DNA of 64,000 nt from a bacterium (GTDB lineage Bacteria; Patescibacteriota; Minisyncoccia; UBA6257; GWB1-50-10), in NCBI GenBank assembly GCA_021814545.1, contig JAKAID010000001.1:41590-105589 (forward strand), read 5' to 3'. How positions within the stretch are numbered: the stretch's first letter is position 1; each line of letters begins with the position of its first letter. Made by a program: the position numbers and the translations under genes. Below, one piece after another: positions 5,634 through 63,282 of the stretch. Under the pieces are notes generated by a model. That model was not told the DNA's origin, ran no database searches, and worked only from the letters and a program-made list of their open reading frames with translations.

Positions 5634-7361
5634 ATGGCTGACGAGCGTCGCGATATCGTATATTTTGGCCGTACCAATTTCCGCAATCAGGACCGGCTTT
5701 TTGGTATTCGCCGCCGTGATAGGAGGCAGCACATGTACGTGATAGGGCAGACCGGCACCGGCAAGTCCAACATGATACACAACATGATCATGCAGGACAT
5801 CGCGAACGGCGAGGGGGTATGCCTCGTGGACCCGCACGGCGAGAACGTGGAGGGTATTTTGCAAAAAATCCCCGAGGAGCGTCTGAACGACGTTGTCTAT
5901 TTCAATCCCGCCGATACGGAGTTCAATATCGGTTTCAACGTACTCGAAATTCCCGACCCGAAGTACAAGCACCTTGTCGCTTCGGGCCTTATGGGTATTT
6001 TTACAAAGATTTGGTCGGGGGTGTGGTCGGCGCGCATGGAGTACATCATGAACAATGCGATTTTGGCGCTCCTCGAAACCCCCGGCACCACACTCCTTGG
6101 CATCACCCGCCTTCTTGTCGACAAGGAGTACCGCAGGGAGATAGTGGCGAATATTAAAGACCCGGTCGTGAAGGCATTTTGGGTGAACGAGTACGAGGAG
6201 TGGAAGGAGCAGTTCAGGAATGAGGCTATCGCGCCCATCCAGAACAAGGTGGGCCAGTTCCTTTCGACACCGCTCGTACGCAATATCGTGGGTCAGTCGA
6301 AGAGCACCATTGATATCGCGGAAATCATGAACTCGGGGAAGATATTCCTGGTGAACGTGTCAAAGGGGCGCATTGGTGAAGACAACTCGGCGCTCCTTGG
6401 CGCCATGCTTATCACGAAAATCCAGCTTGCGGCGATGGAGCGCGTGCGCATCCCCGAAGAAGAGCGCATCGATTTCTATCTGTATGTCGACGAGTTCCAG
6501 AATTTTGCCACGGATTCGTTCGCGAATATTCTTTCCGAAGCGCGCAAATACTATTTGAACCTTATTCTCGCGCATCAGTACATTGGCCAGCTTGTGACGG
6601 ACGCCTCGACCAAGGTGCGCGATGCCGTATTCGGCAACGTAGGTACCATGGTAACGTTCCGCGTAGGCGCGACAGACGCCGCATTCTTGGAAAAAGAATT
6701 CGAACCAGAATTTGGCATTCAGGACATGGTGAATTTGCCGAACTATCACATTTATCTGAAGCTCCTCGTGGGTGGCGTGCGCAGCAGACCGTTCTCAGCG
6801 ACGACCCTGCCGCCGCTTGAACTTGCAGCGTCGGGCGATATCGCCGCGCGCGTTATCCAAAATTCCCGAAAGCGCTATGCACTGCCGAGCAGCGTGGTTG
6901 AGGAAGATATACAGAACTGGAGTAGTGCGGGGGCGAAACCAGAGAATGAGGCAGATTGTATGAATTGCGGAAAGCATGTGAAGCTTCCTTTTACGCCATC
7001 GCCTGGGCGGCCGGTATATTGCCCCGATTGTTATGCGAAAGTGAAGTCGGGCGAGATAAAGTCGGCGCGGGTGACCGAGCGTGAACGCAAGGGAGGGGAA
7101 GCCGAATATCTTGGGTCCGAACAGCCCATACAGCGGCCCGAACGTCCGCAGGGTGCACGCCAGGGTCCTGCGCGCCCCGCAAGGAAAGCAACTATCGTCC
7201 GCGAGGGTCATACCGCAAAAGAGGCGGAACGTCCCGCGATAAGTTTGCGCGAATTGAAGCCCGTAGTGCCAAAAGAAGAGAAGCCGCGCACGCAAGGGGC
7301 GCAAAACTTGAGCGAACTTCGAAGGTCGCTTGAAGAGGCGATAGGGAAATTGAAGAAATAA
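5634..7361 (+). CDS. VirD4/TraD/TraG-like type IV coupling-protein family P-loop ATPase with a C-terminal zinc ribbon and basic tail
   Basis: Walker A GQTGTGKSN; Walker B YLYVDEFQNF; C-terminal CMNCGKHV...YCPDCYAK followed by a K/R/E-rich tail. Confidence 0.5.
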   Translation: MADERRDIVYFGRTNFRNQDRLFGIRRRDRRQHMYVIGQTGTGKSNMIHNMIMQDIANGEGVCLVDPHGENVEGILQKIPEERLNDVVYFNPADTEFNIGFNVLEIPDPKYKHLVASGLMGIFTKIWSGVWSARMEYIMNNAILALLETPGTTLLGITRLLVDKEYRREIVANIKDPVVKAFWVNEYEEWKEQFRNEAIAPIQNKVGQFLSTPLVRNIVGQSKSTIDIAEIMNSGKIFLVNVSKGRIGEDNSALLGAMLITKIQLAAMERVRIPEEERIDFYLYVDEFQNFATDSFANILSEARKYYLNLILAHQYIGQLVTDASTKVRDAVFGNVGTMVTFRVGATDAAFLEKEFEPEFGIQDMVNLPNYHIYLKLLVGGVRSRPFSATTLPPLELAASGDIAARVIQNSRKRYALPSSVVEEDIQNWSSAGAKPENEADCMNCGKHVKLPFTPSPGRPVYCPDCYAKVKSGEIKSARVTERERKGGEAEYLGSEQPIQRPERPQGARQGPARPARKATIVREGHTAKEAERPAISLRELKPVVPKEEKPRTQGAQNLSELRRSLEEAIGKLKK

Positions 7362-8011: not shown

Positions 8012-9211
8012 ATGCAATATGATTTCCCGTATCCTATGTCAAGGATGGCGATGAGAACAAAGGGGAGGGTATTCGTGGGGATGTCCGGCGGAGTGGATAG
8101 CTCCGTTGCGGCGTTTCTGTTGAGGCGCGCGGGGTATGACGTTACGGGTGTCTTTATCAAGTGCTACAACATCGACGGGTGTGCGGAGCGTGATGCAGAG
8201 GATGCGCGCCGGGTCGCGGGGCAGCTTGAGATTCCTTTCTATGTGTTCGATCTCGAGAAGGAGTATAAAAAGAAAGTGGTGCAATACATGATAGACGGAT
8301 ACAAGGCGGGCATTACGCCGAATCCGGACGTGATGTGCAACAAAGAGATAAAGTTCGGACTGTTTCTGAAACGCGCCTTGTCGCTTGGGGCTGACTATGT
8401 GGCAACGGGGCACTACGTGAAACTTATTAATTCGCTTCGCGCCCCCTCGGAGAGTGTCTCCGGGGCGACGCCCAAGTCTTACTCTCCTCGCGGGCGCGAA
8501 GCTTCTTCCCTTTCTCTCGCGATAGCAGAGGACAAGAATAAAGACCAGTCATACTTTTTGTGGACGCTTACGCAGAACGAGCTGCGGCACTGCCTCTTTC
8601 CGCTCGGAGAACTCACAAAACCGGAGGTGCGCGCCATTGCGAAGAAGGCAGGACTTGTGACCGCAGAAAAGAAAGATTCGCAGGGCATCTGCTTTTTAGG
8701 AATGGTGGATCTCAAAAGTTTTTTAAAAAAATACATCAAGACAAAGAAGGGAGAGGTGCTTTCGACCGAGGGCGAGGGTATCGGCGAGCATGATGGCGCG
8801 CAGTTCTACACGATAGGGCAGAGGCACGGGTTCCGATTAACGGCGCCCGTTAGAAAGGGCGCGCACGAAACGCAGCCGCACTATGTGGTGGGGAAGGACG
8901 TAAGACATAACACCATCACCGTTGCGGAAGGGAGCGCACATAACGCGCTCTTCAGAAAAACGCTTTTGCTCGCGAACGTGAATATCGTCACCCCAGTAAA
9001 GCAAACGGAGAAGGTCTTGGCACGCGTGCGCTATCGGCAGCCACTTTCGCCCGCAACGCTTGCTAAAAAAGGCGCGGGCGCAAAAACGCGCTATGTGCTT
9101 ACGTTTGCGAAGTCCCAAAAGTTCGTTGCGGAGGGGCAATCAGCTGTTTTCTACAAAAAGGGAGGGGGGCTGGTCGGGGGAGGTATTATCGTGTATAATG
9201 GTTTGGCATGA
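8012..9211 (+). CDS. mnmA: tRNA-specific 2-thiouridylase MnmA carrying a 23-codon in-frame insertion of a palindromic repeat (8434-8502)
   Basis: PP-loop VGMSGGVDSSVAA; GHY...NKDQSYFLW region; an extra ~23 aa (SLRAPSESVSGATPKSYSPRGRE) where E. coli MnmA has ~18 aa. Confidence 0.85.
   Translation: MQYDFPYPMSRMAMRTKGRVFVGMSGGVDSSVAAFLLRRAGYDVTGVFIKCYNIDGCAERDAEDARRVAGQLEIPFYVFDLEKEYKKKVVQYMIDGYKAGITPNPDVMCNKEIKFGLFLKRALSLGADYVATGHYVKLINSLRAPSESVSGATPKSYSPRGREASSLSLAIAEDKNKDQSYFLWTLTQNELRHCLFPLGELTKPEVRAIAKKAGLVTAEKKDSQGICFLGMVDLKSFLKKYIKTKKGEVLSTEGEGIGEHDGAQFYTIGQRHGFRLTAPVRKGAHETQPHYVVGKDVRHNTITVAEGSAHNALFRKTLLLANVNIVTPVKQTEKVLARVRYRQPLSPATLAKKGAGAKTRYVLTFAKSQKFVAEGQSAVFYKKGGGLVGGGIIVYNGLA
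8434..8502. repeat. family B palindromic element, copy B1, in frame within mnmA
   Basis: Outer inverted repeat gcttcgcgccc/gggcgcgaagc; inner stem ggagagt/actctcc; 29-nt core gtgtctccggggcgacgcccaagtcttac (8454-8482) identical to 18236-18264; 69 nt = 23 codons. Confidence 0.7.
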
Positions 9212-9768
9212 AAAAGATATTCGGAGTTATTGCCGTAATAGCTTTGTTTTTTGCGGTTTTCCCGTTCGCACGCGCGGAGTCGAAGGTGCCTGTTAAGGCG
9301 TCCGCAACCTCGAGTCAGCCCACGAAGTGGGATATTTTGAATTTGATGCAGCACGGCGCGCTCCAAGCGACCTCGTCCTATGAAGCGACGTTCACCGATG
9401 ATGAAATAAACGAATTTTTGAACCAGGAGCTTGCTCAGCACAAAATGACATGGTTCGTTGACCGTGCGGCGGTACAGTTCCACGCGGATTCGGCGGATAT
9501 CACGCTTCACGTATTGCGCCCCTTTGCGGGAGACTTAGCGGTGAACGTGGTGCCGCAGGTCGCGGATGGTGAGGCAAGCATGGTAATCAATTCATCGTGG
9601 TACGGGTATCTCCCGTGGCCCTCGTCATTCTTCGAGCGCGTAGGCGATTTCATTTTGAAAAAAAAGACGATAGACGATTGGTTTTCGATCGAGAATGGGA
9701 AGTGGGACGCGATAACGCTGAGCGATGGCTCGGTTACCGTGAAAGTAAGTGGAACGGGCGAGAAATAA
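9208..9768 (+). CDS. secreted hypothetical protein (signal peptide)
   Basis: N-terminal MKKIFGVIAVIALFFAVFPFARA; ATGA overlap with the mnmA stop; immediately upstream of comEC. Confidence 0.45.
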   Translation: MKKIFGVIAVIALFFAVFPFARAESKVPVKASATSSQPTKWDILNLMQHGALQATSSYEATFTDDEINEFLNQELAQHKMTWFVDRAAVQFHADSADITLHVLRPFAGDLAVNVVPQVADGEASMVINSSWYGYLPWPSSFFERVGDFILKKKTIDDWFSIENGKWDAITLSDGSVTVKVSGTGEK

Positions 9769-9771
9769 ATA

Positions 9772-11250
9772 GTGTGCGCTGAAATGCTGCCGTACGAATA
9801 CTTCTTCTACGGCGGCATCTTTTTTCTCTCGGGCGTGCTTGCGGCAAGTGCCGGCGTGGCGCCCCTTTTTGTTACCATAGGAACGCTTTTTACGTCTGCC
9901 GTGCTTTTTTTGGCGCACTTTTACGGCGTGCATCCTCGCGCTCGGCTTTTTGCGGCGTTAATCCTGCTCGTGGTGGCGGGCTCTTTTTATTATCGCGCGC
10001 ACGATGTGCGTTTTCGTGCGGAACGGATTCCTTTCGGACAGAAATTAGCGTTTACGGGCACGGTTGCGAGCGACCCCGTCGCGAGCAATGGCGAGCAACA
10101 GATGAAACTTTCCGTGACCTCGCCCTTCCGCGCGAGCATACTTCTCATCGCACGGGGTTACCCGCGGCTTGCGTACGGGGATGCAGTGCGCGGTGTGGGC
10201 GCGGTGCAGTCCGTAGGCACCACGAGTTATGCGCGGTATCTCGAGAAGGAGCTTGTGCGTGGCACGATGCGATATCCGAGTATTGCACCGATTGGAGAGC
10301 GGAGGGGCTCGCGCGTCGTTGCGGCACTTTATGCAATAAAGCATAGAATCATGGCAGCGTTCTCAAATGCGCTCCCGCCCGACGAAGCGGTGTTTTTAAG
10401 CGGGCTTACCATCGGTGCGCGCGGCGCATTTCCCGACGAGCTCAAAGATGCAATGAAACGCTCGGGTACCACGCACCTTGTGGCGCTCTCGGGCTATAAC
10501 ATCACCATTCTTGTTGCGGTCGTCTCGTGCATGCTCCTCTCCTTCCTTTCGCGAAGAGCGGCGTTTTTTGTGACCGTTCCCATTATTATCGCCTTCGTTA
10601 CGATGACGGGAGCCGAGGCCTCAGTGGTCCGTGCGGGCGTGATAGGGGTCCTGGCGCTCCTTGCACGCGAGGTGGGGAGGGCACACGATATGCGCAACGT
10701 TATTCTTGCGGCGGGCATTGTGATGGTGCTCGCGAATCCCAAAGTGCTCGCATTCGATATCGGCTTCCAGCTTTCTTTTCTTGCACTTCTCGGGCTTGTG
10801 TATGTAGGCCCCGCGCTTATGAATCTTTTTCATATCGAGGAAGGAGGCAAGGGGCCCCTCTCATGGAAAGAGGGGCTTATTACCGCGCTTGCGGCGCAGC
10901 TCGCGACTTTGCCGCTTCTTGTCGGGAGCTTCGGTGTATTTTCTCCCGTATCGCTCATTTCGAATATCGCCATTCTCGAATTCATCCCGCCCACGATGGG
11001 GCTTGGGTTTTCCGTCGCGCTCGCTTCGCTCGTGTCAGGGACCGTTTCGCTTTTCCTCGGGCTTCTTGCGCACGTGTTTCTGAGGCTCGAATTGTGGCTC
11101 ATCTACTTTTTTGCTCGCATTAGTTTTCCGCTGCATTTCAAGATGAGCGTGGTGCTTGGTGCCGTGTACTACCTCGCGCTCGGCGTTTTTGTGTGGCGGT
11201 ATACTAAGAACCATGGTGGAAGCGCTCTTCGCACTCGTCACGCGAAATAA
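9772..11250 (+). CDS. comEC: DNA internalization competence protein ComEC/Rec2, membrane competence domain only
   Basis: Multi-TM protein; ComEC motif GTTHLVALSGYNITILVAVV. Confidence 0.75.
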   Translation: MCAEMLPYEYFFYGGIFFLSGVLAASAGVAPLFVTIGTLFTSAVLFLAHFYGVHPRARLFAALILLVVAGSFYYRAHDVRFRAERIPFGQKLAFTGTVASDPVASNGEQQMKLSVTSPFRASILLIARGYPRLAYGDAVRGVGAVQSVGTTSYARYLEKELVRGTMRYPSIAPIGERRGSRVVAALYAIKHRIMAAFSNALPPDEAVFLSGLTIGARGAFPDELKDAMKRSGTTHLVALSGYNITILVAVVSCMLLSFLSRRAAFFVTVPIIIAFVTMTGAEASVVRAGVIGVLALLAREVGRAHDMRNVILAAGIVMVLANPKVLAFDIGFQLSFLALLGLVYVGPALMNLFHIEEGGKGPLSWKEGLITALAAQLATLPLLVGSFGVFSPVSLISNIAILEFIPPTMGLGFSVALASLVSGTVSLFLGLLAHVFLRLELWLIYFFARISFPLHFKMSVVLGAVYYLALGVFVWRYTKNHGGSALRTRHAK

Positions 11251-12094
11251 AAAGACGTTCATCATATTCGCAGGCGCCTTCATGGTGCTCGATGCTATGC
11301 TTTTTGGCTCTATCGCGCGTGCAGCGTACGCGCGCGATTCGCTCACGCTCAATTTTTTGAACGTGGGGCAGGGAGATGCGGAGCTTGTTGGGCTGCCGGG
11401 CGGCGCCACGCTTCTCATCGACGGCGGGCCGGCGCGCGGTAACGTGCTTCACGCGCTCGCGGAAGTGCTTCCCGTGACGCAACGCACTATCGACCTTGTG
11501 GCGCTCACGCATGCGCAAGCGGATCATTTTGCGGGGCTTATCGAGGTGCTTTCGCGGTATCGCGTGGGAGCGTTCCTGTGGACGGGGCGTGCGGGGACGG
11601 GAGTGGCGTATGAGGCGCTTATGCACGCGCTTCAGGAACACCACGTGCTGCTCGTCGTGCTTCGGCGGGGCGACGTTGTACGGAGTGGGAAAGGAATTGT
11701 TCGCGTGGTTTCTCCTGACGCGGCGCTTGCGGCGAGCAGAGACCTTAACGATACTTCACTTGTGCTTCAAGCGGAGTTTGCGAGCACTACCACGCTTTTT
11801 ACGGGCGATATCGGAAAAAGCGCAGAACGGAGTATCGCAAACGCACTTCGGGCGCCTGTCAGTATCTTAAAAGTGCCGCACCACGGCTCGAAGGGTTCGG
11901 TATCTGCGGCATTCACGGACGTGCTGCGGCCCGCGCTTGCGGTAGTTGAGGTGGGGAAGAATTCCTACGGACACCCTTCGCCCGAGGCGCTTGCCGACCT
12001 TGCGCGGGTTGGCGCGCGCGTATTCCGCACAGACGAGGATGGCACCATCACCGTGCGCATCGACGAGGCGGGGCGCGCGCATATTACAAAATAA
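11213..12094 (+). CDS. metallo-beta-lactamase fold protein, ComEC C-terminal domain-like, in +1 frame overlapping comEC 3' end
   Basis: LNVGQGDAELVGLPGGATLLIDGG and THAQADHFAGL MBL motifs; N-terminal TM segment; ORF track frame starts at 11156. Confidence 0.6.
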   Translation: MVEALFALVTRNKKTFIIFAGAFMVLDAMLFGSIARAAYARDSLTLNFLNVGQGDAELVGLPGGATLLIDGGPARGNVLHALAEVLPVTQRTIDLVALTHAQADHFAGLIEVLSRYRVGAFLWTGRAGTGVAYEALMHALQEHHVLLVVLRRGDVVRSGKGIVRVVSPDAALAASRDLNDTSLVLQAEFASTTTLFTGDIGKSAERSIANALRAPVSILKVPHHGSKGSVSAAFTDVLRPALAVVEVGKNSYGHPSPEALADLARVGARVFRTDEDGTITVRIDEAGRAHITK

Positions 12095-14502: not shown

Positions 14503-14573
14503 CGGGCTGTAGTATACCGGTAGTACGCATGCATGGGGTGCATGTAGACCGGGTTCGATTCCCGGCAGCCCGA
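14503..14573 (+). tRNA. tRNA-Pro (anticodon GGG)
   Basis: Manual cloverleaf: acceptor CGGGCTG/CAGCCCG; D stem GTAT/GTAC; anticodon stem CATGC/GCATG with loop AUGGGGU (G37); T arm CCGGG-TTCGATT-CCCGG; discriminator A; no encoded CCA. Confidence 0.85.
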
Positions 14574-55016: not shown

Positions 55017-55087
55017 CTGGGGGACAGGGATTCGAACCCCGATTCACGGCTTCAAAGGCCGCTGTCCTACCATTAGACGATCCCCCA
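55017..55087 (-). tRNA. tRNA-Gln (anticodon UUG)
   Basis: Reverse complement TGGGGGATCGTCTAATGGTAGGACAGCGGCCTTTGAAGCCGTGAATCGGGGTTCGAATCCCTGTCCCCCAG; anticodon loop CUUUGAA; 3-bp D stem as in bacterial tRNA-Gln. Confidence 0.85.
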
Positions 55088-63109: not shown

Positions 63110-63265
63110 GAATATAAAAAGAAATTCCTCTCTGAAATGAGAGGAAGCTGTGTGTCGACCTTTATCTTCCCCTGTTCCAGGGTTGGATGGAGCACCTTCT
63201 TTGAGTTCCCAAAGGGTTGCTGGGTGGATCACGGAGCCAATTCTCTCCCCACCGCTCTTCATAAG
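63110..63265 (-). ncRNA. SAM-I (S-box) riboswitch with terminator expression platform, in the metK leader
   Basis: RNA sense CUUAUGAAGAGCGGUGGGGAGAGAAUUGGCUCCGUGAUCCACCCAGCAACC...GGUGCUCCAUCCAACCCUGGAACAGGGGAAGAUAAAG; P1 CUUAU/AUAAG; terminator GCUUCCUCUCAUUUCAGAGAGGAAUUUCUUUUU. Confidence 0.75.
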
Positions 63266-63282
63266 TATTCGATTGTACGAGC

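Follow-up and report, generated by a model that had tools for sequence, protein, structure and literature searches.

Gene organization of the comEC locus

We examined a comEC locus in a 64,000-nucleotide (nt) stretch of a Patescibacteriota genome (contig JAKAID010000001.1 of assembly GCA_021814545.1, positions 41,590 to 105,589), referred to below as the window and numbered from its first letter. A preliminary description of the window had reported ComEC as divided between a membrane competence-domain open reading frame (ORF) ending at 11250 and a metallo-β-lactamase (MBL) ORF lying in the +1 frame and overlapping it by 38 or 95 nt. ORF display confirmed this layout, and the evidence presented below strongly supports the overlapping pair as a true two-gene arrangement rather than an error, a pseudogene, or a frameshifting device. 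The features of the pair are as follows.

9784 to 11250, + strand: comEC N-terminal gene (ORF1), with a borderline OB (oligonucleotide/oligosaccharide-binding) fold/DUF4131 region and the Competence transmembrane channel
11213 to 12094, + strand: comEC C-terminal gene (ORF2), predicted membrane-anchored ComEC-type MBL nuclease of 293 amino acids (aa)
11213 to 11250, + strand: 38-nt overlap of the two genes, seen in the three-frame display

ORF1 can start at GTG 9772 (492 aa) or ATG 9784 (488 aa); its database form (P0121, 488 aa, 100% identical) begins at the ATG. ORF2 lies in the +1 frame relative to ORF1 and extends from TTG 11156 to 12094, with an ATG at 11213; counted from the ATG it shares 38 nt with ORF1, and counted from the TTG, 95 nt. 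Since an exact 293-aa database protein exists (P0001, 100% identical to the ORF2 product) and the N termini of homologues align on its methionine, protein comparison places the true ORF2 start at ATG 11213. Among homologues, the motif M-x-[DE]-x-[LI]-F..H-K-x-K is kept as the protein N terminus. In the 38-nt overlap, the ORF1 frame gives the basic cytoplasmic tail of that protein (..HGGSALRTRHAK*), and the +1 frame gives the N-terminal helix of ORF2 (MVEALFALVTRN). Public annotations already show two genes, the second named mostly "MBL fold metallo-hydrolase" by NCBI and mostly "competence protein ComEC" by JGI.

Domains, predicted topology, and nuclease residues

Domain searches, hydropathy, and comparison with a characterized ComEC placed the following features on the two genes.

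9868 to 10278, + strand: OB fold/DUF4131 region (PF13567), ORF1 residues 33 to 169, numbered from GTG 9772
10405 to 11196, + strand: Competence channel domain (PF03772), ORF1 residues 212 to 475, E value of 6.7e-41, profile positions 1 to 265 of 270
11252 to 11320, + strand: predicted transmembrane helix/signal anchor of ORF2, residues 14 to 36, Kyte-Doolittle value of 2.14
11510 to 11527, + strand: metal-binding motif H100-A-Q102-A-D104-H105 of ORF2, equivalent to H598-x-D600-x-D602-H603 of Moorella glycerini ComEC

The Competence domain of ORF1 scored 140.9 bits against a cutoff of 23. The DUF4131 match was weaker (E value of 3.6e-07; 30.5 bits, slightly under the 31.6 cutoff), and PF13567 is present in most close ORF1 homologues. 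ORF2 matched Lactamase_B (E value of 7.9e-11) and positions 410 to 663 of the ComEC_Rec2 profile TIGR00361 (E value of 1.7e-29). The homology E values are well outside what chance would produce. The domains that ComEC/Rec2 carries on a single polypeptide are spread here over two ORFs in different frames, the OB fold as a borderline match.

ORF1 residues 134 to 476 align to residues 144 to 489 of the full-length ComEC structure 30bt_A, and ORF2 residues 41 to 286 align to residues 532 to 789 (E value of 1.4e-28); because of these two alignments, ORF1 and ORF2, as judged by sequence, together cover one ComEC. The stretch of 30bt_A left unaligned between them corresponds to the ORF1 basic tail and the ORF2 N-terminal helices. 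ORF2 also matched the isolated nuclease domain 9IC4 (E value of 2.1e-28). An AlphaFold2 model of ORF2 (predicted local distance difference test [pLDDT] score of 91.2) has helices at residues 2 to 11 and 13 to 40 followed by an MBL fold, and its top Foldseek match was again the ComEC MBL domain 9IC4 (E value of 1.9e-23, template modeling [TM] score of 0.83).

The transmembrane segment that the preliminary description had assigned to the MBL ORF was borne out: residues 14 to 36 form the only hydrophobic segment of ORF2 and fall within helix 13 to 40 of the model. R11, K13, and K14 precede this helix. In ORF1, the last hydrophobic segment (residues 456 to 476) is directly followed by an R/K-rich C terminus. 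In the cryo-electron microscopy structure of ComEC, the MBL domain lies outside the membrane on a flexible linker (PMC13539106). The positive-inside rule, together with this periplasmic position, suggests that ORF2 has its N terminus inside and its MBL domain outside. Applying the same rule to the ORF1 tail and the ORF2 N terminus, we infer that the break between the two proteins falls in a cytoplasmic loop ahead of the last transmembrane helix.

Mutagenesis of M. glycerini ComEC covered H598, D600, D602, H603, D700, H725, and S728 (PMC12455585). Six of these seven are kept in ORF2 (H100, D104, H105, D199, H223, and S226), the seventh, D600, being replaced by Q102; the HH pair H223/H224 is also retained. 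Among relatives, the H, D, and H of the motif never change, and the other tested nuclease positions change rarely or not at all; the third motif position (the D600 equivalent), by contrast, can be D, H, Q, or E in fused and split forms alike. D600A was the mildest mutant in vitro, with an ~5-fold loss of rate (PMC12455585). Since six of the seven tested residues are kept, Q102 occupies a naturally variable position, and D600A was the mildest mutant, the ORF2 nuclease looks active.

The split is neither an assembly error nor a decaying gene

The two frames differ by +1, and one base change within 11147 to 11250 would join them, so that a sequencing or assembly indel could in principle have broken a one-piece comEC artificially, as the preliminary description had allowed. 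However, all 2,323 nt of 9772 to 12094 are identical in the NCBI metagenome-assembled genome (MAG) GCA_027349205.1 (contig DAIEMZ010000006.1) and in the Logan assemblies of SRR13299515 and SRR13240876. Thirteen contigs carry the exact ORF2 protein, and the same split occurs in hundreds of diverged homologues with other overlap lengths and frames. Identical DNA in three assemblies led us to reject an assembly error, to which we assign next to no probability.

A recent frameshift mutation that left a decaying comEC pseudogene would fit the loss of competence genes in reduced genomes and the frameshift type of the break. This option of the preliminary description found no support. Compared with their homologues, both ORFs have their full length, with the Competence profile matched over positions 1 to 265 of 270, and the catalytic residues H100, D104, H105, D199, H223, H224, and S226 are retained. 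ORF2 has a conserved N terminus and a start signal, and the split predates the divergence of many classes of the Candidate Phyla Radiation (CPR). We rejected a pseudogene on the basis of the full-length domains and conserved catalytic residues and consider it very improbable.

Distribution of the split among relatives

The preliminary description had taken ComEC to be canonically one polypeptide and proposed comparing its architecture in related genomes. That premise does not hold for this lineage, and the comparison found the same split in sister lineages; the unfused state across Patescibacteria-type relatives strongly supports a true two-gene arrangement, one of the options originally listed. 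All 120 of the best ORF1 homologues are proteins of 426 to 524 aa that have DUF4131 and Competence domains only and no MBL domain, and 119 of the 120 best ORF2 homologues are stand-alone MBL proteins of 277 to 316 aa. Among these 120 best matches, source-named ORF1 homologues mostly carried Patescibacteria lineage labels, and source-named ORF2 homologues were mostly from Jorgensenbacteria, Paceibacterota, Brennerbacteria, Wolfebacteria, or the Patescibacteria group. An exhaustive ORF2 search returned 51,202 matches among 1.84 billion representatives; within the best 150 of these, 134 were at most 320 aa and only 7 were at least 700 aa.

For a survey of loci, one genome per species was scanned by MBL alignment, and the 80 loci obtained were each scored with profiles of both halves. 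The counts of locus states and the neighbor-joining tree of the MBL domain cover 83 sequences (genome loci, the window, and sister contigs), which fall into four states.

Adjacent or overlapping pair: 34 of 83
Same strand, 0.2 to 3 kb apart: 14 of 83
No competence gene on either strand within up to 4 kb on each side (a few contigs end sooner): 17 of 83
Fused: 18 of 83

No competence gene was found on the opposite strand at the MBL-only loci. In the tree, the 18 fused genes fall in groups labeled Chloroflexi (Anaerolineae and Dehalococcoidia), Actinomycetota, and Gemmatimonadota. Six of the 65 nonfused sequences sit in these fused groups (L017, L024, L050, L065, L082, and one other adjacent pair); the remaining nonfused sequences, including the window, form one clade with zero fused members. 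The split is shared by every sampled locus that groups with Patescibacteria and, on this tree, looks ancestral there, close relatives outside being mostly fused.

Adjacent pairs have overlaps of 4 to 44 nt in the +1 or −1 frame, or small gaps. In the closest sister lineages, at 55 to 61% identity, the split is kept with overlaps of 11 and 20 nt, and the gene order is that of the window: mnmA, orf186, comEC-N, the MBL gene, aspS, and ndk.

Several loci depart from the common pattern. Two Dehalococcoidia MAGs (L017 and L024) have splits inside an otherwise fused Chloroflexi clade, beside the fused L051, and these splits apparently arose independently, judging from their position; L017 has a 4-nt ATGA overlap with a GGAGG-like motif upstream. 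In one close relative (L087, protein P0117, on a Logan contig of SRR29366192), the Competence-MBL junction is in frame (fused), but the reading frame is lost within the Competence domain, near profile position 340; either the halves re-fused and a new break arose, or this one contig of 2.8 kb is misassembled. A monophyletic group (L009, L010, L011, L022, L025, L026, L042, L044, L048, and L052) consists of stand-alone MBL genes around which neither strand of the surveyed flanking DNA carries a competence gene; these genes might be paralogs rather than the only nuclease half of ComEC. The Gammaproteobacteria or Saccharibacteria labels of L019, L029, L030, L062, L080, and many "uncultured Candidatus Saccharibacteria" (TPA_asm) entries disagree with their place in the Patescibacteria-type clade; the taxonomy given in these third-party assemblies looks doubtful.

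Programmed frameshifting is not supported

At this locus and in many relatives the overlap is in the +1 frame, which raises the question of programmed +1 frameshifting, for example at the ORF1 stop AAA-TAA-A, that would give a fused ComEC beside or instead of two proteins. A +1 shift at AAA/TAA would produce ...TRHAK-KKTFIIF..., a topologically plausible loop followed by a transmembrane helix. The comparison with relatives argues against such a device. ORF1 stop contexts vary (AAA TAA A, AGA TAA G, GTT TGA T, and ACT TGA G), and no conserved shift site was present at the ORF1 stop among the window and three relatives. The second gene lies in the +1, −1, or same frame, with overlaps of 4 to 44 nt, gaps of 1 nt to 3 kb, or on unlinked genes. 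The proposed shift point comes after ORF2 residues 1 to 12, and these residues show the conservation of a protein N terminus. No Shine-Dalgarno-like stimulator is present, in a genome that hardly uses such motifs. Frameshift genes of the prfB type have a conserved +1 shift site with a stimulator, whereas the ORF1/ORF2 junction has neither. The frameshifting option of the preliminary description is therefore not supported, given that frame, overlap, and stop context differ among relatives and some pairs are gapped or unlinked, and we give it very little credence.

ORF2 probably has its own promoter

The start of ORF2 lies in the context ggTATACTaagaaccATG, which contains one further feature.

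11200 to 11205, + strand: TATACT, −10-like hexamer, 7 nt upstream of the ORF2 ATG

No Shine-Dalgarno motif precedes the ORF2 start, and such motifs are found at only 3 of 51 window genes, compared to a background of 16%. A −10-like hexamer, defined as a match to TATAAT at ≥5 of 6 positions and often GGTATAAT or GGTATACT, ends 5 to 10 nt before the first ATG in 14 of 66 window genes, ORF2 among them, where 0.8 would be expected. Controls gave 1.2% at random positions and 1.1% (4/348) at internal in-frame ATGs. Examples of window gene starts with the hexamer are 5634, 9208, 11213, 12141, 16801(−), 37565, 41303(−), 52119, and 53244. All seven close lineages examined have a −10-like hexamer 6 to 10 nt before the MBL start; in one of them (L091), the two genes are 298 nt apart and the hexamer lies in noncoding DNA.

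Because the hexamer is enriched before gene starts and is present in the seven close lineages, ORF2 probably has its own putative −10 promoter inside the 3′ end of ORF1, giving a leaderless mRNA. The near absence of Shine-Dalgarno motifs and the −10-like hexamers just before ATGs suggest, at the level of sequence, that leaderless mRNAs are widespread in this Patescibacteria lineage. Leaderless genes with a −10 box ~6 to 10 nt upstream of the start codon are described for Actinobacteria and Deinococcus. The window genes resemble these in that a TATAAT-like hexamer precedes the ATG by a short, fixed interval and Shine-Dalgarno motifs are nearly absent; ORF2 differs in that its hexamer is inside an upstream coding sequence, and the present reading is from sequence. 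No relevant paper on leaderless genes in Patescibacteria was found in the literature searched.

Several observations weigh against a separate promoter. TATACT lies within the ORF1 codons (R)-Y-T-(K), and in most sister lineages the hexamer overlaps the conserved ORF1 codons R-Y-T-K; constraint on the ORF1 coding sequence could therefore account for some of its conservation, and only L091 separates the two effects. There is no −35 element for the ORF2 TATACT, and a promoter and terminator scan found no terminator or full −35/−10 promoter between the ORFs, with counts not above those in shuffled sequences. The generic promoter scan needs a −35 element and therefore misses a −10-only signal.

This lack of a terminator and a full promoter is also what would be expected if ORF2 were translated mainly by coupling or reinitiation on the ORF1 transcript, and start/stop overlaps, 4-nt ones included, are common among adjacent pairs. 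Still, the ORF1 stop is 38 nt downstream of the ORF2 start, far for reinitiation, and no Shine-Dalgarno motif is present. In addition, the −10-like hexamer stands at its genome-typical spacing in all seven close lineages, even at a gene distance of 298 nt, and the two genes are far apart or unlinked in other lineages. Translational coupling, which the preliminary description had proposed, thus keeps a place, but the −10-like element 7 nt upstream of ORF2 fits better; as the main route of ORF2 translation, we consider coupling possible and rather unlikely.

Working model of a two-gene ComEC

A functional two-gene ComEC is, in our judgment, highly probable. The gene structure, the homology, the conserved split, the intact catalytic residues, and the enrichment of the hexamer are observed; the association of its halves, their role in DNA uptake, the promoter used, and the topology are deduced. 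In our model, ORF1 would provide the OB fold and the DNA channel, ending beyond its last transmembrane helix in a basic tail on the cytoplasmic side. ORF2 would be translated separately from ATG 11213, its N-terminal helix anchoring the protein so that the MBL nuclease lies outside the cell membrane. There it would associate noncovalently with ORF1 and degrade the nontranslocated strand, as the C-terminal domain of one-piece ComEC does. Fission in the cytoplasmic loop before the last transmembrane helix would allow each half to insert into the membrane independently. ORF2 would most likely be expressed from its own −10 element (TATACT, 11200 to 11205) as a leaderless mRNA, apparently the usual mode of this genome, and internal initiation or coupling on a read-through ORF1 transcript may contribute.

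Two points count against this model. Taken singly, the ORFs score 65.5 and 102.5 bits against TIGR00361, both below its equivalog cutoff of 190 bits, and the Moorella nuclease is more active in vitro with the OB fold on the same chain (PMC12455585). By analogy, a split ComEC, which must rely on noncovalent assembly, might be less efficient than the one-chain form.

ORF2 might instead be an independent surface MBL hydrolase or DNase, for example in nucleotide scavenging, uncoupled from the ComEC channel. The 17 loci without a nearby competence gene, the 14 loci with the genes 0.2 to 3 kb apart, and the probable promoter of ORF2 would all fit such a role, as would the view, given in a passage of Méheust et al., that CPR bacteria, which lack nucleotide synthesis, scavenge DNA (PMC6744442). 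Yet the best sequence and structure matches of ORF2 are to the ComEC C-terminal domain, the MBL gene adjoins or overlaps the competence gene in 34 of the 65 unfused loci, and gene order is conserved in sister lineages. We regard an uncoupled hydrolase as improbable and favor the two-gene ComEC.

A further reading, which we offer tentatively, is that the Patescibacteria-wide fission is ancient and selected, with the nuclease made from its own leaderless promoter and acting in trans with the channel or as a free DNase. If true, such a selected fission would be a natural counterexample to the need for the OB fold and nuclease on one chain.

Comparison with known ComEC systems

The locus shares with one-piece ComEC/Rec2 (TIGR00361; Bacillus subtilis; Moorella/Neomoorella 9IC4 and 30bt) the same modules in the same order (an OB fold, borderline in ORF1, the Competence channel, and transmembrane helix plus MBL domain) as well as the H..DH, D, HH, and S catalytic residues kept in ORF2. 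It differs in consisting of two polypeptides and in having Q at the D600 equivalent.

The lack of ComEC fusion in CPR is already known: a passage in Méheust et al. 2019 (Nat Commun; PMC6744442) reports a Competence protein without a fused MBL domain in nearly all CPR genomes. Like the proteins in that passage, ORF1 is a Competence-domain protein with no fused MBL domain. The ORF1/ORF2 pair is a member of this unfused CPR type, with an MBL-less channel and a separate membrane-anchored MBL gene of ~290 aa that usually adjoins it. Since the same split occurs in sister lineages and across the phylum and the lack of fusion has been published, the arrangement is ordinary for the group, an outcome that the preliminary description had anticipated in the event of precedent in sister lineages. 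What the present analysis documents beyond the cited passage is the survival of the MBL half as a membrane-anchored protein with a gene of its own, which in many cases overlaps that of the channel. A classification of the domain profiles of Competence-domain proteins is given by Pimentel and Zhang 2018, and the searched passages of their paper do not mention detached MBL genes. In the ComEC-focused literature, we found no paper describing a detached membrane-anchored MBL gene; only Méheust et al. 2019 note the absent fusion in CPR.

ComEC variants without an active MBL domain occur in Streptococcus pneumoniae, which has the EndA nuclease, and in Helicobacter pylori (PMC12455585). As in these species, the channel protein and the strand-degrading nuclease here would be separate polypeptides. 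The nuclease of S. pneumoniae is the unrelated EndA and that of H. pylori is not known, whereas the one at this locus is the orthologous ComEC MBL domain, detached. In a cultured Saccharibacterium, deletion of comEC abolishes transformation (PMC10633639). A split ComEC is of relevance because CPR bacteria are believed to rely on DNA taken up from outside and count at least one naturally transformable member among them.

For annotation, these results mean that an MBL-less ComEC or an overlapping +1 MBL ORF in Patescibacteria should not be flagged as a frameshift or pseudogene and that the neighboring "MBL fold metallo-hydrolase" is to be read as the ComEC nuclease half. For competence biology, a natural split form allows one to ask whether the nuclease needs a covalent tie to the channel and the OB fold. 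Reliance on leaderless mRNAs in this lineage, if true, would matter for gene calling. What stays of interest in an otherwise ordinary arrangement is that the detached nuclease has been kept throughout the phylum and probably has a leaderless promoter of its own.

Neighboring genes and other features of the window

The gene directly upstream of comEC-N, orf186 (9208 to 9768, + strand), encodes a 186-aa protein whose N terminus resembles a signal peptide and for which Pfam gave no match; the gene has a 4-nt overlap with the mnmA stop, and its end lies 3 nt ahead of the comEC-N GTG. It was considered as a general ComEC partner and rejected: when all collected loci were searched iteratively, the two sister lineages L084 and L086 were the only ones to have it, in the same gene order, and more distant comEC loci lacked it.

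An Rfam scan of the window gave no match in or near the comEC locus; its sole matches were a SAM riboswitch at 63159 to 63267 (− strand, 54.6 bits) and tRNA genes at 14503 to 14573 (+ strand) and 55017 to 55087 (− strand). A gene for a VirD4/TrwB-like coupling protein lies at ~5634 to 7361 (+ strand), 2.4 kb upstream of comEC, with TrwB_AAD_bind and TraG-D_C matches on the identical contig L001, and could be part of the type IV secretion system that PMC12102498 discusses for Patescibacteria.

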